Source: Escherichia phage vB_EcoM_ESCO10
Length of the DNA stretch: 64,000 nucleotides
Reading direction: 5' to 3' (one strand)
Sequence record: OM386655.1
Position numbers and translations under genes: made by a program. This document shows, one piece after another, positions 1,059 to 46,209 of the stretch (position 1 is the stretch's first letter; every line of letters starts with the position of its first letter). A model generated the notes under the pieces. That model worked only from the letters and a program-made list of their open reading frames with translations. It searched no databases and was not told the DNA's origin.

Positions 1059-1292
1059 TTAAACAATATCAGTAGGCGTAAACATTGCCTCGTTTTTGGT
1101 CTTCCAGTCAGCAGCATCAGTCACTACAGTTGAGTAGGCCGCTACCGCCGAAGGGAAAGTCTGATAATGAGCATTGGCAATACGATGTGCATTAGAATAG
1201 ATTTCAAACGGAACAGAAACCTCGGTACCTTTAACTTCTTTACCTACACCAGCTGCATGCGTGAAGGTTTTAATATTAACGAAACCACCCAT
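1059..1292 (-). CDS. soc: small outer capsid protein Soc
   Basis: 77 aa; GxVNIKTF...AHYQTFPS...AAYSTV matches T4 Soc from memory; RBS AGGAG upstream. Confidence 0.85.
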   Translation of the reverse strand: MGGFVNIKTFTHAAGVGKEVKGTEVSVPFEIYSNAHRIANAHYQTFPSAVAAYSTVVTDAADWKTKNEAMFTPTDIV

Positions 1293-1323
1293 AATTAACT
1301 CCTTTGTTGTTTAATTACAGGTG

Positions 1324-1331
1324 TATTTATA
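1324..1331 (-). promoter_or_regulatory. T4-type late promoter box TATAAATA upstream of soc
   Basis: plus-strand tatttata = TATAAATA on minus strand, about 30 bp upstream of the soc ATG. Confidence 0.55.
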
Positions 1332-1334
1332 TCA

Positions 1335-1856
1335 TTAATAACCTCGGTCCTGACGAGCAAAGTTCTCAGCATTTTTCAGATAATACAGTTTAAAGATTTC
1401 TTCAGCAGTCAGACCAAGGCCTTGGAACATATTCAGAACGAAATGGAGAATATCAATCATTTCAAATTTAATTTCGAGCTGGTCTTCAGGAGACAAATCG
1501 TTAATCAAGGTTTCACGACGTTCAGCATGTTGAGCTTTCCAAGGCTTCCATACTGCTGATGCATCTTTTTCACCATTGCTCATACCACCAAGAGAAGTCA
1601 GAAGTTCACGGAATTCATCATCAATATAATCTTTCTGATTACGCAGCCAATCAACAACTTCACCTGCAGTAGCCAAATCATCAGGGTGTCGGTTATATTC
1701 AGGTTTATCTTTAGCCAAACGGACCTGTAAAGATTTCTGCATATCAAGCATAACCTGCAATGGGTCTTTATCTTCGTGAATCAAGGCATTAAAATAAGCT
1801 TCCTCAGCTTTATCAACGCCAGCAATCAAACCACTACACTCATTAAAATGTGCCAT
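1335..1856 (-). CDS. 56: dCTPase/dUTPase (dCTP pyrophosphatase, gp56)
   Basis: 173 aa; strong similarity to T4 gp56 from memory; partner of gene 42 in hmC DNA synthesis. Confidence 0.85.
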   Translation of the reverse strand: MAHFNECSGLIAGVDKAEEAYFNALIHEDKDPLQVMLDMQKSLQVRLAKDKPEYNRHPDDLATAGEVVDWLRNQKDYIDDEFRELLTSLGGMSNGEKDASAVWKPWKAQHAERRETLINDLSPEDQLEIKFEMIDILHFVLNMFQGLGLTAEEIFKLYYLKNAENFARQDRGY

Positions 1857-1860
1857 TATA

Positions 1861-2517
1861 TTATTTCCTATTAAAGTTTTCTATCATTCGTCGATAACAA
1901 ATATCAGGATATCCATTATCGACAGCTATTTTATTAAATTTGGTGCGTTTAGGTTTATTATTATAAACCCATAATTCATAAAGCGCATCATAACTATCCC
2001 ATATTTCTCCTCGCCTAGGATTTGGTAAACCGTATCGAGGTGAATTTTTACCGCTAAATCTTCCTTTTCGAGCTTTACTCATATTAGCCTTGGCTTCATC
2101 GGATATAATTTTATCTTTATGAGCTAGACGCATTTTGGCTTTAGTTTCTTCTGGGGTCTTTTTGCCTTTAATCCATGACGGCTTGCCATATCTAGGATTA
2201 TTTTCACCTGTAACTAATAGTGAATTATTTTCCCTTAATGATGCTATAGTTCTGCTAGTTAATTTAACTCCTTTATTATATCTCATTAAATTAACGGCAT
2301 GATGCAGACCTTTTACTTCAGGATACATTTTTGTTAAAAGCCTATGGGCTATAAAGTGCTCTCTTGGTAATAAAGCCACTAAATTATTTTTATCATCGGA
2401 ACCATTCATACATTTGGGTACAATATGGTGTTCTTCTGTATAATATGGTAAGGACCGCTTGGTACCTCTTAATTTTCCATTAGATATTAATTCATTGTAT
2501 ATTTTTTCATAGTTCAT
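1861..2517 (-). mobile_element. HNH homing endonuclease (mob/I-Tev-like) with NUMOD3-type repeats
   Basis: 218 aa; HNH motif EEHHIVPK...NLVALLPREHFIAH; repeated NPRYGKP / NSPRYG motifs; visibly AT-rich; sits between genes 56 and 61. Confidence 0.8.
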
Positions 2518-2773
2518 GGGATAATTATAAACTGTTTAGATTAAAGCGAATAAATATTAATTTAACAGGAGGATAACATGGGCAGTATTTTTTATCAAAT
2601 CTGGAAATTGGCCGAAAAGAAGACAAGAAAATGATGTTAGGTTTTCTTGCGCTAGACGTATTCCTTTGGAATCTTTTAGTAGTCCCTGTAGCCGCTAGCC
2701 AAGGTGTAGTTTTACCAGCGGTTACAATGGAGCACGTGTTAAGCATAATTGGATTCTTTAGCGGAATTCCTGC

Positions 2774-3802
2774 CTAAATCTTGGAATATTTTGAAAGTCG
2801 CATTTTTGCCATTAAACCTTGTGCGATATTCTCTTTCATATAAGAAAGGATATCGTTTATATTGGCTTTATCTTTCATAACCATATCATTTATATCTTTA
2901 GAAGGCCATGGAGCCTTGTCCCAGAACAGAACCCTTTCACCGGCATCAACTAGTCGTTGCATACGCTTAATTGTGTCAGGATGACGGGGTTCATTGTCCA
3001 TTACCCATGCTCTTGTTTCTTTACATGGAACTATTGATAAGTCTAACGACCCACCAGTAATTGCTATTGCATTAGGTACAAATAATGAATCGATAGGGCC
3101 TTCCATTACCCACACCAACTGACGTTCGTCAACCGTGTCCATTCCATATATTTTTGTAGCTTGGTCGTGAGCTTTAATTGTAATATATTTTTGTGGGGCA
3201 TCTTTACGTAAAGCTCGACCCTGAAAGCTTTCAATTTGTTTATCTTTATTAAAAATAGGAATAACCAAACGAGGCTCAGGTATTTCTTTAGAATAGGTCC
3301 CGGGATTCACTGAGTTAACCAGCGCCGGCCACTCTTTCGTAAACCATAGTCTATTCCATTTGTTTTCGGGAATGCATCGCAGAGTTACATATTTGATAAT
3401 AGGATGGTCTTTAGGCATTCTATCTAATCGTTCACAGAAATTAAGCTTTTCGATGACAGGCATCTTAGCTTTAATTTTTTCAGATATCTCCACCTTAGGT
3501 GTAGCTTGTCTCCCGAACGATTGCTCTTTATGTTTCTCAAGAATATATTCTCGATATAAATCTGGCTCATATTCGTATAGATACTTCTTAATTCCTGCTG
3601 AATAGTCACAATTAAAACAATGCAACATAATAGAACCATCGTTAGCCGGGTAAGCCCAAAATCGAGCTTTGTTCTCATCTTTTTGTGAGTCACCACATAC
3701 ACGACAACGACAGTTTAATTTAAAATCACTACCGGTTACTTGTCTGAATTTAGGTTGGTAATTCAAGGCACGTACAGCAAATTCTTTATCGACATATGAC
3801 AT
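2774..3802 (-). CDS. 61: DNA primase gp61
   Basis: 342 aa; zinc-binding CRCRVCGD...CFNC N-terminus and length match T4 gp61. Confidence 0.9.
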   Translation of the reverse strand: MSYVDKEFAVRALNYQPKFRQVTGSDFKLNCRCRVCGDSQKDENKARFWAYPANDGSIMLHCFNCDYSAGIKKYLYEYEPDLYREYILEKHKEQSFGRQATPKVEISEKIKAKMPVIEKLNFCERLDRMPKDHPIIKYVTLRCIPENKWNRLWFTKEWPALVNSVNPGTYSKEIPEPRLVIPIFNKDKQIESFQGRALRKDAPQKYITIKAHDQATKIYGMDTVDERQLVWVMEGPIDSLFVPNAIAITGGSLDLSIVPCKETRAWVMDNEPRHPDTIKRMQRLVDAGERVLFWDKAPWPSKDINDMVMKDKANINDILSYMKENIAQGLMAKMRLSKYSKI

Positions 3803-4018
3803 TATTTTTCCTTGGGCTCTAAATTAATAGAGCCATTATATCATTCGTTTTTGGATTTTTCTTTACGCTTTTTAGATGGGATTTGTTCAGGCCCTTTGTT
3901 GACGACTGCGCCTGAGGTAGTTCCGGAGGCAATATTAGATGGATTTCCACCCGCATCACCTGCGACCATATCTTCGTTCATGAACTCTTTATACGTTTTC
4001 ATAGGCTCCTGGCCTTAT

Positions 4019-14284: not shown

Positions 14285-16996
14285 TTAAAAGTCGAACATG
14301 TCAAATAATGTCGCTTTTTTCTCATAGTTGATTTTAGCAGACTCGGTAAAACCGGTTAGAGGTTTGATAAAGGTCTTTTGGAACAATACGTTGTAGTCCA
14401 TCCAACGGAGAACTTGGTCGCGAATCTGAACTGGAAGCTCAATACCTGACGGCCACGCCATACAAGCTTCACCGAACGGGTTGCCTTCTTTAAGCGGCAG
14501 TACATATACCTTTTCACCGTCAACGATACGAGGCATAGTCAAATCACCTGCAGAAGCACGCATATAAGCTAAGCAACCTTTGATATGGTATGGGCATTTA
14601 GAACCAGGGAAACCGCCTTCATTATATTTCTCAATGTTGTTAGCACTGGATACTGCAGCAATGCTTACGTAGTCCAGTTCGTTGAATTCTTTATTAAACT
14701 GTTTGAAATATTCTTGTAAAGAAGCCTCGCCTTCTTGAAGCATACGACGGATGCATTCTTTCAGTGCTTTCTGAACTGCTTTAGGTGTACTTGATTTCTG
14801 GGTTTCGAGACCCATGATTTTCAAGTGAGGTTCAGCATAACGGGTGCCTTCCATGTCCCAAACGTTAAGTGCATAACGTTTCTTGCCAGTCCAGAATCCA
14901 CCAAGACCTTTAGAACCAAGTGGAGGTCCTGCGATAGCTTCTCGGTCCATGAACATCAAGTGTTGTTTGTTGTTCATGTATTCACACATCTCACGGAAGC
15001 CTACGTCAATAGCTGGTTCCATACGTTCACGTGCAAATTTATCTAAGAAGTCAACCCAGTGGTTAGTATCACGGAATTTTTCTTCGCCTACTTTATTGAT
15101 GATTGCATCTGCCTTAACATAAATGGAGTCAGTATCACCATAGAGCACGAACTTCTGGTTTTCAGTCTTACACACGCTATTCAGATATTCGTTAACCTTA
15201 CGTTCAATCCATTGGAGGGCCATTTGACCAAACAATGTGATTGCAGTGGCATTGCGCAAATCATAGTAACGGAACCATACGTTACCAAGTGCACCATAAA
15301 GGGAGTTGATAAGCAACTTACGGTTAATCTGAGCCGTCATACCTGCGACTTCAGTACGTTCGGCTTTGAACAACATTTTCTCTAGAACAACCCTACTTAG
15401 ATTGCTGAGTTCTTTTTTAATTTCGTCGTTGAAGTCAAAACGGTAATCAACTTCAGGTTCTTTATTAAGAGAGCGAGAAGGATTTTCTAATGCTTCTTTA
15501 ATTAACTCGCCATTACGTTGGGCTGCAAGCATATAACCTTTATGTTCTTTACGCTGTAAGAACACCTTCGTGATTTCTGTAGGAATCACACCATCGCGGT
15601 CTTTAAAATACATCATGCCGTTAGGAGAGCAACTGTAGGTATCGCTAGGACGCGGAGCAGTTCCGGCAATATATTCATGTATCGGCGCGTTAGCGAATGT
15701 CCCTGCGATGGTCTCTGGGCTAATATTCACCTGTCGAATGATACTCGGGTACAGAGATGTAAGGTCGAAACTCATTACATATTTGTAGGCATTAGGAATC
15801 GGTTCCTTAACGAAAGCACCAGGATAAGGTTGAACCATATGCGACCTAGCCTGAGGAATAACTTTACCCTGTTCTTTAAGACTGTTAAAAATGATAGCGT
15901 CCCAAGTCTTAATAGGGCTGAACACCGACTGAATCTGCATCTTAGCATAGTAACCCATGTCTAGGCTCAGAAGAATGAACTGGCGCTTCATATCAATCTG
16001 CACAACACGATATACGTCGATAATGTTATAGGAAATATATCGTTGGTGGTTAGTCTCACGTAATTTAGAGATCGGGCCATCGTATTTCAACTTACCTACT
16101 TTCAATTCATATTCAGAAACATAATCCAGAGAATAAGATGGTTGGTTGGTAAAGCTGAATTTTTTATAAAGGTCGATATAATCCAGAACACTGATACCGA
16201 ACAGTGTAATGATTTCACGAGCACCATACATGTTCTCGATAACTTTAACACGAGTCTTACGATGTGGGCTTAATCGCTTAGCGGTGTTCTCACCAAACAG
16301 ATTTTTCAGACGGTTATAAACATATGGCACGTCAAATGATTCAACGTTCCAACCGGTCAAAATCACAGGAGTTTTCTGTTGCCAGAAGTTTAGGTATTCA
16401 AGCATCATTTCTTCTTCAGAATTAAACGGAAGATAAACGATTTTGTCAATGATTTCCTGTGGAACTTCGTCACCACCTTCGTCTTGGAGTTTCTCAGCGA
16501 TTTTAATCGACCACTCTTCGACCGTACCATAAGGTGAAACTAAAAGGTCAAATACATAGAATTTATCGTCAATCGAGTCGTAGTGAGTAATGGCATCGAT
16601 CGGATGTTTAGCCTGGGCCGGTTCAGGGAATCCATCAGGAGATGTTACCTCGATGTCGAAGTTAGCAATACGAATCTTAGAAGAATCATACTTGATTTCT
16701 TTACGATAGGTATCGGACAAATATGCCAATTTATAGTCGTCCATACCAAGGGCTTCAAGTCCCATATCGTCCATGCGCTTCATCCACTGAGAGGCGTCAC
16801 GCATTGAATCAAATTCTTTCTTAATACAACCTTTACCATAGATGTCAATATATTTTACGGCTTGTTCTGGGTTGGCATGCATAAACATCGTAGGCTTGTA
16901 AGGAACTTCACGACTACGTTCTTTGCCATTTTTATCGATGTATCGTTCGAGAATATTATCACCGATTTGTTCGACTGTCAAATAGAATTCTTGCAT
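14285..16996 (-). CDS. 43: DNA polymerase gp43 (family B)
   Basis: 903 aa from ATG at 16994-16996 (RBS AAAGGAAA); the track ORF to 17170 is an upstream extension overlapping regA; matches T4/RB69-type gp43 from memory. Confidence 0.95.
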   Translation of the reverse strand: MQEFYLTVEQIGDNILERYIDKNGKERSREVPYKPTMFMHANPEQAVKYIDIYGKGCIKKEFDSMRDASQWMKRMDDMGLEALGMDDYKLAYLSDTYRKEIKYDSSKIRIANFDIEVTSPDGFPEPAQAKHPIDAITHYDSIDDKFYVFDLLVSPYGTVEEWSIKIAEKLQDEGGDEVPQEIIDKIVYLPFNSEEEMMLEYLNFWQQKTPVILTGWNVESFDVPYVYNRLKNLFGENTAKRLSPHRKTRVKVIENMYGAREIITLFGISVLDYIDLYKKFSFTNQPSYSLDYVSEYELKVGKLKYDGPISKLRETNHQRYISYNIIDVYRVVQIDMKRQFILLSLDMGYYAKMQIQSVFSPIKTWDAIIFNSLKEQGKVIPQARSHMVQPYPGAFVKEPIPNAYKYVMSFDLTSLYPSIIRQVNISPETIAGTFANAPIHEYIAGTAPRPSDTYSCSPNGMMYFKDRDGVIPTEITKVFLQRKEHKGYMLAAQRNGELIKEALENPSRSLNKEPEVDYRFDFNDEIKKELSNLSRVVLEKMLFKAERTEVAGMTAQINRKLLINSLYGALGNVWFRYYDLRNATAITLFGQMALQWIERKVNEYLNSVCKTENQKFVLYGDTDSIYVKADAIINKVGEEKFRDTNHWVDFLDKFARERMEPAIDVGFREMCEYMNNKQHLMFMDREAIAGPPLGSKGLGGFWTGKKRYALNVWDMEGTRYAEPHLKIMGLETQKSSTPKAVQKALKECIRRMLQEGEASLQEYFKQFNKEFNELDYVSIAAVSSANNIEKYNEGGFPGSKCPYHIKGCLAYMRASAGDLTMPRIVDGEKVYVLPLKEGNPFGEACMAWPSGIELPVQIRDQVLRWMDYNVLFQKTFIKPLTGFTESAKINYEKKATLFDMFDF

Positions 16997-17448: not shown

Positions 17449-18027
17449 TTACCATTCCAATGCTTGCTTTTTAAATTGTTTTTGTTCTTTCACATTCTTA
17501 GTCACTGTTTTTAAGAATTCGTCCGTAACAATACCTTTAACTCGTTTAAGGAATTCACCGAGTTTATTTTTTGCTGTTAACATTTCACGATACATAACTG
17601 CATCATTGTTATTGATTTTATAAAACTTCATCAGAAGATTATTAATTAATCTATTGTCAACCGTATCTTCAGAAGCTTTAGCCCATTTACCAAAGCGCTT
17701 ACCCTTACTTACAGAATTCAAATAATAATTATAATGAGCTTGGTCATCAAGTCCTGCACCAAGTAAATTCATACGGTTGACTGCAATAATACAATCAACG
17801 TGTTGGCTTAAACTATTATCAAGCCAGAATTTGTTATAGTTATCAGATTTGTCAATATCACGGGTGCCTTTATTAAAGGTAATATCATTCATGATAGCAA
17901 ACAATTCGTTTTCAGGTTTTTCTTTAAATGAATCAGCCAGTTCCTGAATCTTAGCCATATCGCGTGATTTCCACGCGAGTTCGTGTTCGTTGAGTTCAAC
18001 GTCGTCATCAAAAAGACTTATAGCCAT
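17449..18027 (-). CDS. 62: clamp loader small subunit gp62
   Basis: 192 aa; position and size as T4 gp62. Confidence 0.85.
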   Translation of the reverse strand: MAISLFDDDVELNEHELAWKSRDMAKIQELADSFKEKPENELFAIMNDITFNKGTRDIDKSDNYNKFWLDNSLSQHVDCIIAVNRMNLLGAGLDDQAHYNYYLNSVSKGKRFGKWAKASEDTVDNRLINNLLMKFYKINNNDAVMYREMLTAKNKLGEFLKRVKGIVTDEFLKTVTKNVKEQKQFKKQALEW

Positions 18028-35620: not shown

Positions 35621-35905
35621 TTATTTCTTACAACCTACATATTTAGGCATATGGCAGAAAACAGAATCGGTAACTACTCGACCTTTGGCCCATGCTTCCT
35701 GTGCTTTACCGTGAGTAGTATTCACATAGCTGGATTTAATATTCTCGATACCTTGAGAATGTGATGCGTGTGCAGAACCATTAGAAGGACCTGCTGACTG
35801 ACTTGAACCTTGACCGCCCGGGCCTGATGTGCCTTCAGTAGCCAGTACACCAAAAGACATAACAGCGGCCAACAGGCCTATAGCCACTTTTAATTTTAAT
35901 TTCAT
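35621..35905 (-). CDS. secreted small protein (94 aa)
   Basis: N-terminal signal peptide MKLKLKVAIGLLAAVMSFGVLA; Gly/Ser-rich mature region. Confidence 0.5.
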   Translation of the reverse strand: MKLKLKVAIGLLAAVMSFGVLATEGTSGPGGQGSSQSAGPSNGSAHASHSQGIENIKSSYVNTTHGKAQEAWAKGRVVTDSVFCHMPKYVGCKK

Positions 35906-36163
35906 ATTTTCACCTTTTATTAACTCAACATTGAGTAAGATTATTGTATACTAAAGTTTTAAAGCATTTAAATAGCGCTCCAATAATTATGGAAGCGGAT
36001 ATCATTGATTGCCCAGTTAACAAACCTGCGAGTTTGCTTGGGAGTTGGTTTACATATGTACTTATTGTTGATTCGTCTGCCGGTTTCCCGACAGACTGCT
36101 TCGAGATACCAGCGCCGACCTTTATTGGGTCTTCCATATGATAAGAAGACCTTCATTTCTTCA

Positions 36164-40220: not shown

Positions 40221-40499
40221 TTATAGCTTTTTAAGCTTACTACAATAAGCATAAAATACATCGTTAAAATTTTCAGAAACCCATCCACGCTGTATAGGCG
40301 AAGTAATTGAAAGCAGATAATGTGCTTTAATTAACTCCATCCCATTTTTATTAGGGCATTCTTTATTATTAGCATTATACGTCGCTGCTACAACCTCTAT
40401 CTCTCTTTTGTAAGCCGTATCATCCATGATAGGCAAAAGAACAATATAAGAAATAGCCACAGCTACCGCTAGAATTAAAATCTTTGAATTTAGGTCCAT
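40221..40499 (-). CDS. small membrane protein (92 aa)
   Basis: N-terminal TM helix. Confidence 0.45.
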   Translation of the reverse strand: MDLNSKILILAVAVAISYIVLLPIMDDTAYKREIEVVAATYNANNKECPNKNGMELIKAHYLLSITSPIQRGWVSENFNDVFYAYCSKLKKL

Positions 40500-40506
40500 A
40501 GTACCC

Positions 40507-41079
40507 TCAACTCGTTATTTCTATCCAATGCTTCCTGCACAATGACACGTAAGAATCGTTGCCACCTATAGAAACTTGGTCGCCGTCCTTAATTGCGATA
40601 CCATTTTGGATACGAGCTGTCATAGTAGCCTTACGTCCACAATGGCACACACCTTTGTACTCAACGAGTTTATCTGCTGTAGCTAATAATTCAGCAGAGC
40701 CAGGAAACAGTTTACCCTGAAAATCAGTTCTTAGACCGTAACACATGACCGGTATATTATAATTATCTACTATCTTTGCTAATTGTTTTATTTGCAAAGG
40801 TTCTAAGAACTGTGCTTCATCCACAAACACACAGTGGATATCTTTTTGAGATTCAGCCCAACGATAGAACTCGTATAGGTCCATATCTGGAGTCACTGCA
40901 TTAGCCTCTTGGCTAATCCCTATACGAGACGAAATTCTATGGCTTGATTCTCTATTATCTATCGCAGGCTTTAAAAGGAGTACACCCATACCACGTTCTT
41001 TGTAGTTATGGGCCGCCGTTAGCAATGAAGAGGTCTTCCCAGAATTCATCGCAGCATAATGGAAATAAAGTTGGGCCAT
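40507..41079 (-). CDS. tk: thymidine kinase
   Basis: 190 aa; P-loop MNSGKTS and C-terminal zinc motif CHCGRKA...SLCRKH; matches T4 Tk. Confidence 0.9.
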   Translation of the reverse strand: MAQLYFHYAAMNSGKTSSLLTAAHNYKERGMGVLLLKPAIDNRESSHRISSRIGISQEANAVTPDMDLYEFYRWAESQKDIHCVFVDEAQFLEPLQIKQLAKIVDNYNIPVMCYGLRTDFQGKLFPGSAELLATADKLVEYKGVCHCGRKATMTARIQNGIAIKDGDQVSIGGNDSYVSLCRKHWIEITS

Positions 41080-41088
41080 ATTACCTTC

Positions 41089-41292
41089 TTAAAGACTATT
41101 TACATAAGCAATTAATTCGTTTTCTTTCTCATCAAACTGTTCGGCGATTTTTTCGTAATCTTCAGCGCTCACAGGACCCCATTCATCGTATGATTGCATT
41201 CCAGAATTCTCTTCTAGAAGCTCATGGATAAGCTCAAACAATTTATCTTTTTGTTCTTTACTTAGACTCATAACCATTGCACCTTTAAACAA
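41089..41292 (-). CDS. hypothetical small acidic protein (67 aa)
   Basis: ORF. Confidence 0.4.
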   Translation of the reverse strand: MFKGAMVMSLSKEQKDKLFELIHELLEENSGMQSYDEWGPVSAEDYEKIAEQFDEKENELIAYVNSL

Positions 41293-45021: not shown

Positions 45022-45321
45022 TTAGAAAGAACCAGAGCCTTTAATTGTATTCTGACGTCCTTTATTTTCTACTTCAGAGTGGTCGATTTCGTAAGCTTGT
45101 GCTACACCAAAGGATTTTTTAATTTTAGCCAATGAGCCTTTAGAAATAACAATGTTAAAGGTGTTGCCTTTAGAAAAATCAACCAACTCTACAGTAACAC
45201 CGTTATTGGTTAAACTATTAACAATAGCATCAACATATTGCTGGTCTAAAGTTCCCTGAACGCCAATTTGAAAAGCTTTAGGTGCTTTAGCTTCAGTGAT
45301 AAATTCTTGATATGTTTTCAT
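45022..45321 (-). CDS. internal protein (IP) with capsid targeting sequence
   Basis: N-terminus MKTYQEFITEAK matches the T4 IP capsid-targeting sequence (MKTYQEFIAEA). Confidence 0.65.
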   Translation of the reverse strand: MKTYQEFITEAKAPKAFQIGVQGTLDQQYVDAIVNSLTNNGVTVELVDFSKGNTFNIVISKGSLAKIKKSFGVAQAYEIDHSEVENKGRQNTIKGSGSF

Positions 45322-45329
45322 ATTATTCC

Positions 45330-45689
45330 TTAAAGATGGTCAAGGGCTGGGTTATGAGGTTTTTCTGCTTTAGTAGTGTTTTTATGCCAATCTGATTTAG
45401 AAACACGGATGGCATCAGCGCCATAAGAACTCTTAAGGAGACCTTTTTTATTGTACACACTTATTGAAGTAAGAGAATCACCATTCCATGTAGCATGAAT
45501 GAAGTTAGATTTAGATTTAAGTTCTTTAGCCAAGCTCTGGTTAGTGGCCATGGAAGCAAAGTCTATACCTGTAACTTTAAAAACTTCAGATGGGTTCAGC
45601 CCTTCTTTAGCCTTAGCCAATTGTTCAGGAGACATACCTTCGTTAATGCGCTGAGTAGATTCAGTAATAAATTGTTTGTAAGTTTTCAT
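45330..45689 (-). CDS. internal protein (IP) with capsid targeting sequence
   Basis: N-terminus MKTYKQFITES. Confidence 0.65.
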   Translation of the reverse strand: MKTYKQFITESTQRINEGMSPEQLAKAKEGLNPSEVFKVTGIDFASMATNQSLAKELKSKSNFIHATWNGDSLTSISVYNKKGLLKSSYGADAIRVSKSDWHKNTTKAEKPHNPALDHL

Positions 45690-45731
45690 ATTATTCCTTA
45701 AGTTGATAGAAGTATTCTATCACGGATTTAA

Positions 45732-46148
45732 TTAAGCGTAAATAGCCTTACCATAATGTTTGTACCAGGTAGGGCGTTGTGCAATTTTTTCGTCTAAACG
45801 GGCTTGTGATATAGCGATAGAAGCTTCATGGGGAATATAATCACCACGGAATTCCTGAGGAATATCACTAATATCCTGGACTGTAGTATCCTTGATATTA
45901 AACCCGCGTTTTAGACATTCGGCTATAAGCTCAATTTGACGTTTACGTAAGAACTCAAGCTTATCGTAAAAGAATGTAACATGACCCGTGCCAAGGATAA
46001 AACCTGAGCTGATTTTAAAATCACGAACACGTTTACCATTAGCAACATGCTTACGAACTGCACTGAAAACACGTGGTAATTCACGATATTCAGCCATTAA
46101 GTGTTGGTCAGCCAATTCAGATACTAAAGTAAGGTTGATACGAGTCAT
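45732..46148 (-). CDS. denV: endonuclease V (pyrimidine-dimer DNA glycosylase) DenV
   Basis: 138 aa from [26 protein letters not shown] (near-identical to T4 DenV from memory); track ORF is extended 59 codons upstream; RBS AGGAG. Confidence 0.9.
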
Positions 46149-46162
46149 TTTTAATCTCCTGT

Positions 46163-46205
46163 GTCGGTATGAGAGTATCATATCACAACTACAGGAGATG
46201 TAAAC
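46163..46205 (-). promoter_or_regulatory. early-promoter-like element (divergent member of repeat family)
   Basis: GTTTAC with conserved spacer; located between e and denV. Confidence 0.45.
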
Positions 46206-46209
46206 AACT

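Follow-up and report, generated by a model that had tools for sequence, protein, structure and literature searches.

The ORF between genes 56 and 61 (1861..2517, minus strand) is very probably a free-standing homing endonuclease gene of the Mob family that was inserted at the 5'UTR of gene 56, leaving the neighboring interval 2518..2773 out of the mobile element. This interval is ordinary conserved phage DNA, in which a bidirectional promoter region is followed by a small gene. The first-pass annotation had found no convincing gene in 2518..2773; nonetheless, its plus strand holds a conserved gene of 66 codons behind an AGGAGG site, which went unnoticed, its frame being split by a 1-nt deletion at 2619/2620 in the window, i.e. 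in the whole 64-kb stretch of DNA that was analyzed. The window phage is a Dhakavirus (a JS98-like T-even phage), and its nearest relative is vB_EcoM-VR5.

The nuclease gene and its family

The nuclease ORF starts with an ATG, occupies exactly 1861..2517 on the minus strand and encodes 218 residues, in agreement with the first-pass annotation. The protein can be divided in an HNH region (residues ~25-60), a set of NUMOD3 repeats (~105-165) and a C-terminal domain similar to that of T4 MobD (~170-218). The HNH signature, EEHHIVP...NNLVAL.PREHFIAH, whose motif had already been recognized in the first pass, presents the catalytic histidine, the asparagine and the His/His metal ligands in the spacing of HNH domains; its five residues (H30, H31, N45, H54 and H58) are invariant in 38 diverse homologs with identities down to 29%, and can be aligned with the corresponding motifs of McrA and of a group II intron maturase. 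For the nuclease alone, Pfam PF01844 (HNH) gave an E value of 0.004 and 17.7 bits, below the cut-off of 21.4, and it matches 27 of the 38 family members at E <= 0.01. A search of the PDB sequences with the single protein gave nothing significant, and the profiles recovered generic HNH domains only; with the family profile, these were the HNH domains of McrA, of the group II intron maturase and of Cas8-HNH at E ~1e-4. In the AlphaFold2 model, two strands (28-31 and 46-49) and a helix (51-64), with pLDDT above 90, would form a beta-beta-alpha topology. The repeats that had been described as NUMOD-like correspond to Pfam NUMOD3, which scored above its cut-off (28 vs 20.4 bits, E 2e-6), and PHROG 655, 'homing endonuclease', matched the protein with an E value of 1.2e-55. 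The AT-richness of the gene was also borne out, given that its GC content is 32.4% as compared with 38.7 +/- 2.1% in 657-bp segments, a value within the lowest 0.6% of the window.

The nuclease is 100% identical to VR5 gp028 ('MobE homing endonuclease') and 89% identical to IME08 gp026 ('MobE'), which represent the same gene at the same locus and were annotated by similarity only. It shows 43% identity with T4 MobE (BLASTP 7e-29) and 35% identity over the full length with T4 MobD (BLASTP 5e-37). The label 'MobE' reflects the N-terminal similarity, whereas the full-length architecture is nearer to MobD. In T4 MobE the identity spans the HNH and first NUMOD region, and this protein of 141 residues lacks the C-terminal domain that is present in the window nuclease. 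In contrast, T4 MobD (259 residues) has in common with it the domain W..YD.LY.LW...N.PKR..F......GYP...Y...I..F, but it has a longer linker and is encoded at another locus (the nrdC.11 - mobD.1 region); MobD is not known to have been characterized biochemically. As judged from these sequence comparisons, the ORF is a member of the T-even Mob family of HNH endonucleases.

The first-pass annotation had described the gene as typical of mob/I-Tev-like endonucleases; the Mob part of this assignment is supported by homology, whereas the I-Tev analogy is looser, given that I-TevI and I-TevII are GIY-YIG enzymes encoded within introns. The nuclease gene is free-standing: it forms its own ORF between gene 56 and the small gene, its neighbors are uninterrupted, and the group I and group II intron models gave no match in 1300-4000. 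I-HmuI, the intron-encoded HNH nicking endonuclease of SPO1 with NUMOD-like DNA-binding modules, shows the same modular combination of an HNH domain and an extended DNA-binding region, and one member of the nuclease family matches Pfam I-HmuI_NUMOD-like; it differs from the window nuclease in being encoded by an intron, and it was not recovered by sequence (single or profile) or fold searches. Wilson and Edgell regard I-HmuI as the structural paradigm for Mob enzymes (PMC2790892).

The nuclease gene itself carries little weight, since the identical protein of VR5 and the close one of IME08 had already been annotated; it is an ordinary mobile gene, and both its family and the way in which it spreads belong to textbook T-even biology. 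A literature search found no paper on this gene or on the small plus-strand ORF.

Insertion point and promoters of gene 56

The nuclease gene is present in 11 of ~45 Dhakavirus records (about a quarter). The carriers include VR5, IME08, LQ5, UGJNEcP3/4, E33 and ABTNLS3, and the gene is absent from JS98, JS10, WG01, QL01, IME540, dhaeg, CUA3 and AnYang; for JS98 and JS10, no homing endonuclease genes were listed by Petrov et al. (PMC2993671). In an alignment of the junctions anchored on the start of the small gene and on the ATG of gene 56, the insertion spans ~660 bp and has sharp boundaries at 1860/1861 and 2519/2520, with flanks that are conserved among close relatives. In JS98, the spacer between gene 56 and the small gene is 90 bp long. 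This clean presence/absence is the indel pattern expected in the first pass and refutes a universal conservation of the ORF at this position. The distribution is patchy among close relatives and also across three genera (Dhakavirus, Tequatrovirus and Jiaodavirus), with 70 orthologous nuclease genes in total. Together, a real ORF, its Mob homology, the HNH and NUMOD3 regions and the patchy presence support the earlier nuclease call.

The insertion replaces the 5'UTR of gene 56 directly downstream of a conserved MotA-type middle promoter motif, GCTTTA-N12-TATAAT (2524..2547, minus strand), which is the ortholog of the T4 promoter P56/69. T4 middle promoters follow the rule (a/t)(a/t)(a/t)TGCTTtA located 12 +/- 1 bp upstream of a good -10 region, TAtaaT (PMC2988021); the MotA box of the window (2553..2524) reads TTATTCGCTTTA-N12-TATAAT and has one mismatch, C for T before GCTT, and its dependence on MotA is predicted. 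The pattern of MotA-type promoters was found 15 times against 2.9 expected, and none of 100 shuffles reached 15. T4 P56/69 (GCTTAC-N12-TATAAT) is positionally orthologous to this motif, and a P56-type promoter is also found upstream of gene 56 in T4 and in phages without the nuclease gene. The mapped start of T4 P56/69, at 16813, is the 7th nucleotide after the -10 region (PMC2988021). In the window the -10 region ends 6 nt before the nuclease ATG; the predicted start would thus be the A of the ATG at 2517, which would give a leaderless mRNA with no Shine-Dalgarno sequence. The Dhakavirus allele is devoid of the 5'UTR and the Shine-Dalgarno sequence that are retained by the Tequatrovirus and Jiaodavirus alleles, and in consequence it could be poorly expressed or silent.

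A second MotA-type motif, GCTTTA-N13-TATAAT (1960..1984, minus strand), precedes gene 56 by ~100 nt and falls within the 3' part of the nuclease coding sequence. The four nuclease alleles compared, which belong to three genera, all keep it, although synonymous changes have occurred in its spacer, and it would act as a middle promoter for gene 56; however, it lies within the conserved coding sequence LYELWVYN, so that protein constraint may account for its conservation. The Shine-Dalgarno sequence of gene 56, AGGAAA (1864..1869, minus strand), is included in the last nuclease codons, ahead of the nuclease stop codon (1861-1863) and of the gene 56 ATG at 1856. Gene 56 (dCTPase/dUTPase; 1335..1856, minus strand) is the 3' neighbor of the nuclease gene, with which it is predicted to be co-transcribed. 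Between the internal MotA-type motif and the Shine-Dalgarno sequence of gene 56, the nuclease gene has near its 3' end a 16-bp hairpin (1889..1924, minus strand; dG -15.6 kcal/mol, z -3.35); it is kept in the IME08 allele by a change from G-C to G-U, and it is weak in the Tequatrovirus and Jiaodavirus alleles. The terminator scan gave no match on the minus strand and a single one on the plus strand, located inside the nuclease gene, which does not exceed what is expected by chance. At the level of motifs, the nuclease gene would be embedded in a host transcription unit and carry the promoter of the downstream gene in its 3' region.

T4 mobE relies on the transcription of host genes, carries the nrdB middle promoter inside its 3' end and is polymorphic among relatives (PMC2790892). 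The window nuclease gene parallels it in these three features, the promoters being here read as motifs, and both genes are free-standing between two conserved genes of nucleotide metabolism or replication (nrdA and nrdB in T4). [quoted passage not shown] In addition, a terminator is present inside T4 mobE, whose ribosome site is masked by a hairpin; the window gene has no ribosome site, and neither a 5' terminator nor a masking hairpin of the mobE kind was found when looked for. The arrangement would represent a second example of the mobE design, in which a mobile gene carries the promoter and the ribosome site of an essential downstream gene and thereby protects itself from deletion.

Another free-standing homing endonuclease flanks gene 56 in other phages. 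T4 SegF, the subject of work by Belle et al. in 2002, is reportedly a GIY-YIG endonuclease encoded between soc and gene 56. It is found in T4, AnYang, VR26 and others, it is absent from the window, and it differs from the window nuclease in its unrelated catalytic family and in its location on the opposite (downstream) side of gene 56. Since both nucleases flank gene 56, this gene is a recurrent landing zone.

Proposed homing and its alternatives

In the mechanism that we propose, during a mixed infection the enzyme would nick or cut the genomes without the nuclease gene near the insertion point, most likely in the first ~30 nt of gene 56, and recombination-dependent repair would then copy the nuclease gene together with a few hundred bp of its flanks into the cut genome. 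The predicted leaderless mRNA without a Shine-Dalgarno sequence, transcribed from the upstream promoter, would keep the expression of the nuclease low. The candidate nick or immunity site is a polymorphic block at 1829..1835 (minus strand; nt 22-28 of gene 56), which reads AGTGGTT in carriers and TCTCAAC, GCAAACC or TCACAAC in non-carriers. When seven Dhakavirus carriers were compared with nine non-carriers, these were the only positions in 519 nt of gene 56 without a shared base. The block may be the target of the nuclease, but linkage to the insertion alone could yield the same pattern; a nuclease-linked block common to the genera was not found, and the Jiaodavirus carriers equal the non-carriers over the first 40 nt of gene 56. 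This sole nuclease-linked block adjoins the gene 56 side of the insertion (first 30 nt of the gene), opposite to 2518..2773. For the study of Mob-type homing this locus is a clean natural system: it offers Dhakaviruses with and without the gene, two alleles, junctions that are defined, and a candidate immunity block of 7 nt.

Between one Tequatrovirus and one Jiaodavirus, the nucleotide identity is 90.3% for the nuclease gene, 74.7% for gene 56 and 68.6% for gene 61. In addition, the divergence among the window, VR5 and one ENA contig is ~0.4% over the nuclease gene and its flanks (about 1600-2900), as compared with 2-6% elsewhere. A similarity across genera that exceeds that of the flanks, together with a nearly identical tract in three otherwise diverged phages, points to a recent spread. 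A low divergence between the window and VR5 was also observed away from the nuclease gene (3400-3900).

These data bear on two other explanations of the nuclease gene. It could be a domesticated or immobile relic that is kept because gene 56 needs its promoter and ribosome site, both of which, the former as a middle-promoter motif, are inside the nuclease gene; Wilson and Edgell argued that such an arrangement selects against the deletion of T4 mobE (PMC2790892), and the Dhakavirus allele could be translated only from a leaderless mRNA. We consider this explanation unlikely, given that dN/dS between the nuclease alleles is 0.06-0.19 across the whole protein and the catalytic residues are invariant, which indicates that selection acts on the nuclease protein itself, and that the recent spread outlined above does not fit an immobile gene. 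Less likely still is that the gene was ancestral at this site and was inherited vertically, its present distribution being the result of many losses by deletion and not of homing. The presence of the gene in the same slot in three genera would agree with this idea, as would two Jiaodavirus loci without it that share the junction bases of the carriers (AC before the ATG, and CCA as the second codon), which looks like a loss. However, in the phages without the nuclease gene, gene 56 is preceded by P56, a UTR of ~34 nt and a ribosome site, collinear with T4, and this 5'UTR looks like the ancestral empty state and not like the scar of a deletion; moreover, an identity of 90% between genera, when the flanking core genes show about 70-75%, is not expected from vertical inheritance, and in most T-even genera the slot has other content or nothing. 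Insertion of a mobile gene at the 5'UTR of gene 56 is thus the reading that we favor.

A small membrane-protein gene in the interval 2518..2773

Phages that carry the nuclease gene and phages that lack it share the interval 2518..2773 in nearly the same form, and none of its positions is linked to the presence of the nuclease. Its plus strand carries a gene for a single-pass membrane protein of 66 residues (PHROG 2024; 2578..2777), whose stop codon overlaps that of gene 61 (DNA primase; 2774..3802, minus strand), so that the two genes are convergent and overlap tail to tail. An AGGAGG ribosome-binding site (2567..2572) is located 5 nt before the ATG at 2578. Further upstream, a late-promoter-like motif, AATAAATA (2549..2556, plus strand), stands back to back with the MotA box, and the IME08-type allele has the exact TATAAATA. 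Of 16 lineages, 13 have the sequence ATAAATA 12-22 nt upstream of the start of the small gene and every one has TAAATA, with a chance expectation of ~2% per lineage; a late expression of the small gene is predicted from these motifs.

When the sequence of the small gene was repaired, it matched PHROG 2024 with an E value of 4.9e-28. The gene is intact as an ORF of 66 residues in the 11 first relatives that were compared, and also in most of the other T-even loci examined, some of which gave no match; it is conserved across T-even genera, and the T4 copy, an ORF at 17,738-17,938 on the plus strand, lies between dam and gene 61. Its dN/dS is 0.07-0.17 (about 0.1), which denotes purifying selection. 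The product has a basic N-terminus and one hydrophobic helix, in which the pattern W-N-x4-P-x5-G-x3-P characteristic of PHROG 2024 is found, W31, N32, P37, G43 and P47 being invariant; it also agrees with the family in its length (61-74 residues), its convergence with gene 61, its strong ribosome site and the upstream ATAAATA. Searches of Pfam, NCBIfam and PDB with the small protein gave no match, and no second copy of the gene was found elsewhere in the 64-kb window.

The proposal that 2518..2773 lacks a real gene, being either the target of homing or a degraded remnant, has in its favor that the longest ORFs of the interval in the window are poor, with 73 (antisense) and 48 codons, and that Rfam (E up to 10) and ARAGORN detected neither an RNA family nor a tRNA in its vicinity. 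This proposal is now highly improbable, since the interval is nearly the same in carriers and non-carriers, includes the ortholog of the mapped T4 promoter P56, which is the promoter of gene 56, and encodes a conserved protein under selection behind a strong ribosome site and a late-promoter motif. The antisense ORF of 73 codons (2525..2746, minus strand), rightly considered of low quality in the first pass, was rejected as a gene and is spurious: it had no family match, it lies opposite to a gene under purifying selection, and in the relatives the antisense frames are never open for more than 60 codons.

Only in the window is the small gene split, into a stub of 18 codons (2578..2634) and an ORF of 48 codons (2631..2777), by the loss of one nucleotide at 2619..2620 (plus strand), where every relative has GAAAAG[A]AAGAC. 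The TGA of the stub overlaps the next ATG (ATGA), and thus a membrane-spanning product of 48 residues could still be made. The deletion may be an error of sequencing or assembly, the gene being intact in the real phage, an explanation that we take seriously while leaning slightly against it. The missing base is a single A within an A-rich stretch (GAAAAGAAAGAC), the deletion is unique with respect to at least 14 relatives, among them three other contigs that encode the identical nuclease protein and keep the A, the gene is otherwise under strong purifying selection, and an exact-match scan of IMG/VR for the deleted allele gave no match. On the other hand, the run at the deletion comprises just three A's, as opposed to a long homopolymer; the comparison with VR5 over 50 kb brought out no further uncompensated indel of one base, although short ones within or close to intergenic stretches may have gone unnoticed; the Dhaka-type paralog of the small gene in VR20 shows a comparable truncation at its N-terminus; and the ATGA overlap leaves room for the shorter product.

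Our confidence is evenly divided on a reading that joins these observations. According to it, T-even phages would have in PHROG 2024 a conserved late gene that has gone unrecognized and that invariably meets the primase gene tail to tail; the window phage would be a frameshift mutant of natural origin, in which coupled re-initiation yields no more than an N-terminally truncated form of 48 residues. As a separate matter, the gene 56/oriA-type promoter may have been rewired by the nuclease gene, which would be expressed from the old promoter as a leaderless mRNA and would have brought another promoter and ribosome site to gene 56 in exchange.

Finally, these results allow a correction of annotation: a small membrane-protein gene is located beside the primase gene, is missing from the reference annotations of T4 and JS98, and is frameshifted in the window phage. 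In the databases, the small protein is named 'hypothetical protein' throughout, apart from two spurious 'dCTP pyrophosphatase' labels.

The nuclease gene and its protein

In a nucleotide similarity search, positions 1300-3850 of the window matched 670 phage records, and the best match was Escherichia phage vB_EcoM-VR5 (98.1% over the full length), which is a Dhakavirus. The Dhakaviruses are the JS98-like T-even phages. With local gene names taken from the annotations of VR5, IME08 and JS98, the minus strand carries soc (1059..1292), gene 56 encoding the dCTPase (1335..1856), the ORF of the nuclease gene (1861..2517) and the primase gene 61 (2774..3802). An exact TATAAATA is located at 1324..1331 (-), 32 nt ahead of the soc start codon (1292), as expected for the late promoter of soc; its presence shows that this phage uses the T4 late-promoter consensus.

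The first-pass annotation had proposed that the 218-aa ORF between genes 56 and 61 encodes an AT-rich HNH homing endonuclease with NUMOD-like repeats, and our results agree with each of these points, including its exact position. The Pfam NUMOD3 model matches over its cut-off (E 2e-6) and PHROG 655 'homing endonuclease' matches at 1.2e-55, whereas the Pfam HNH model falls just under its cut-off (17.7 bits vs 21.4). Residues H30, H31, P34, G39, N45, H54 and H58 are invariant among 38 aligned homologs with identities as low as 29%, and the profile of this alignment matches the HNH domains of McrA, a group II intron maturase and Cas8-HNH fusions (E ~1e-4). The GC content of the gene, 32.4%, is in the lowest 0.6% of windows of equal size (mean 38.7 +/- 2.1%), and the dN/dS values of its alleles (0.06-0.19) indicate that the protein is under selection.

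The gene was already annotated in close relatives, given that VR5 gp028 (100% protein identity) and IME08 gp026 (89%) are both named 'MobE homing endonuclease'. This label is loose, since T4 MobE has only 141 aa, is 43% identical over the N-terminal 134 residues and lacks the C-terminal domain; in contrast, T4 MobD is 35% identical over the full length, C-terminal domain included. From these comparisons the protein is best read as a member of the Mob family built like MobD, and the gene as a known kind of element with known behaviour, for which activity and a target site are predicted.

Boundaries and predicted transcription of the insert

The nuclease gene is present in approximately 11 of some 45 Dhakavirus records. 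Carriers include VR5, IME08, LQ5, UGJNEcP3/4, E33 and ABTNLS3; it is absent from JS98, JS10, WG01, QL01, IME540, IME341, IME281, dhaeg, CUA3 and AnYang. In JS98 and JS10, Petrov et al. recorded no genes for homing endonucleases (PMC2993671). The insertion boundaries, proposed earlier as a check, were defined by anchored comparison of the junctions in carriers and non-carriers. In non-carriers, a GCTTTA-N12-TATAAT promoter motif is followed by 'tatc', a 5'UTR of ~35 nt with a ribosome site, and then the start codon (ATG) of gene 56. The window also has 'TATAATtatc', but after it come 'cc' and the nuclease ATG; the nuclease gene ends in ...AGGAAATAA, and TATA separates this end from the ATG of gene 56. 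Therefore, the insert spans 1861..2519 and stands in place of the gene 56 UTR; the last nuclease codons supply the ribosome site of gene 56. The same slot holds orthologs in Tequatrovirus (ph0021, ~35 records) and Jiaodavirus (~22 records), at 76-79% amino-acid identity; these orthologs have a GTG start and leave the original UTR and ribosome site of gene 56 in place.

At 2547..2524 (-), the promoter motif agrees with the MotA-box rule, (a/t)3TGCTTtA at 12 +/- 1 bp from TAtaaT, and is the positional ortholog of T4 P56/69 (GCTTAC-N12-TATAAT), whose mapped start, 16813, falls on the 7th nt past the -10 (PMC2988021). By the same count the start site would be the A of the nuclease ATG (2517), and the mRNA from which the Dhakavirus allele is translated would then be leaderless and lack a Shine-Dalgarno. 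In T4 itself, P56 depends on MotA and is regarded as the promoter that primes oriA (T4 annotation; PMC3016281).

The window contains 15 matches to GCTTTA-N11-13-TANNNT (2.9 expected), 11 of them on the minus strand, and the one at 1984..1960, inside the nuclease gene towards its 3' end, is kept in 4/4 alleles. Likewise, the nrdB middle promoter of T4 lies inside the 3' region of mobE, and Wilson and Edgell argued that it guards mobE against deletion (PMC2790892). T4 mobE also has an internal terminator and a hairpin masking the ribosome site, whereas a search for either in the nuclease gene region found none. In the 3' end of the gene, a 16-bp hairpin at 1889..1924 (-) (dG -15.6, z -3.35) separates the internal promoter motif from the ribosome site of gene 56; the IME08 allele preserves this hairpin by a G-C to G-U change, and in other genera the structure is weak.

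A small conserved gene next to gene 61

The interval 2518..2773 had been considered a possible homing target region or remnant, without a convincing gene. Neither view stands, because the same, almost identical DNA is present in carriers and non-carriers, and it holds promoters and a conserved plus-strand frame of 66 codons (ATG 2578, end 2777, overlapping the primase stop). The 73-aa minus-strand ORF was correctly regarded as low-quality; it is antisense to this frame and is not conserved as an ORF. Upstream of the small gene are AGGAGG (2567-2572, +) and the late-promoter motif AATAAATA (2549-2556, +), which is the exact TATAAATA in the IME08 type; ATAAATA is found 12-22 nt before the start in 13/16 lineages.

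The ORF is intact in 11/11 of the first relatives, and most other fetched T-even loci carry an intact homolog in the same place, with no match in some. Across T-even genera the product is a single-pass membrane protein of 61-74 aa, encoded tail to tail with the primase gene, with a basic N-terminus, a single hydrophobic helix, and invariant W31, N32, P37, G43 and P47; dN/dS is 0.07-0.17. It belongs to PHROG 2024 (function unknown), and has no relative in Pfam, NCBIfam or PDB. The T4 homolog lies between dam and gene 61 (MVQKLMALVNAIKGNKKR..., NC_000866.4 17,738..17,938 (+), 3739..3939 of the fetched locus L014); the T4 RefSeq and JS98 reference records have no feature there. Conservation, dN/dS, protein features and the upstream motif argue that the gene is real and presumably expressed as protein, and the interval is a short bidirectional promoter region together with a small, conserved and putatively late gene.

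In the window a single A present in every relative is missing at 2619/2620, leaving an 18-codon stub whose TGA overlaps the ATG (ATGA) of a 48-codon ORF that still holds the membrane helix. The loss may be either a real deletion or a sequencing error; three contigs with the identical nuclease protein all have the A.

The product is named 'hypothetical' everywhere in the source records; 'dCTP pyrophosphatase', the label of the gene in MN850609 (dhaeg), NC_031065 (CGG4-1) and the UniRef entry for IME341, is apparently an annotation transfer from the neighbouring gene 56. The Gapriverviruses VR25, VR20 and VR26 carry two tandem paralogs (~2015..2412 of their loci), one T4-type and one Dhaka-type, and the Dhaka-type copy of VR20 is truncated at the same A-rich stretch as the window frameshift. 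What lies between the small gene and gene 56 is hypervariable among T-even genera (loci L014-L064): the slot can be empty (~90 bp) or contain this HNH gene, dam, a short MazG-like ORF (~94 aa) or ORFs of other kinds; in T4, dam is upstream of P56. On the opposite side of gene 56, SegF (GIY-YIG) is found in T4, AnYang, VR26 and others.

Signs of mobility, candidate target block and differences from VR5

Between ph0021 (Tequatrovirus) and 15882-3-1 (Jiaodavirus), nucleotide identity is 90.3% for the nuclease gene, 74.7% for gene 56 and 68.6% for gene 61. When the window, VR5 and a metagenome contig from ENA are compared, divergence is ~0.4% at ~1600-2900 and 2-6% in the surroundings, with a sharp step at ~1600, inside gene 56; since comparably quiet stretches are present elsewhere in the same comparison, this low-divergence tract is supportive but not decisive. 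At 1400..1600, in the 3' half of gene 56, the window has 27 mismatches to VR5 in 200 bp and matches JS98 and IME281 instead; this is a recombination patch ending at the edge of the tract.

Only six positions of the 519 nt of gene 56 have no base common to 7 Dhakavirus carriers and 9 non-carriers, and all six are in nt 22-28 (window 1829-1835), adjoining a very conserved block at nt 31-120. This arrangement resembles the bipartite site in nrdB that has been proposed for T4 MobE; nevertheless, the carrier-linked pattern may be mere linkage, and the difference at nt 22-28 is not seen in Jiaodavirus.

A second endonuclease gene differs in presence among these close relatives: between tk and tk.2, VR5 carries gp105, a 738-bp gene for a 'site-specific intron-like DNA endonuclease' (40499..41236 of locus L067), with no counterpart at window 40507..41292, where tk (40507..41079) is directly followed by a tk.2-like ORF (41089..41292). 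Approximately 540 bp at window 35621..36137 are absent from VR5 and hold two small minus-strand ORFs, one of 94 aa whose N-terminus resembles a signal peptide and the other of 70 aa. At 45023..46209, blocks matching VR5 denV and ip7 are in the reverse of the VR5 order, as a result of a local rearrangement or replacement.
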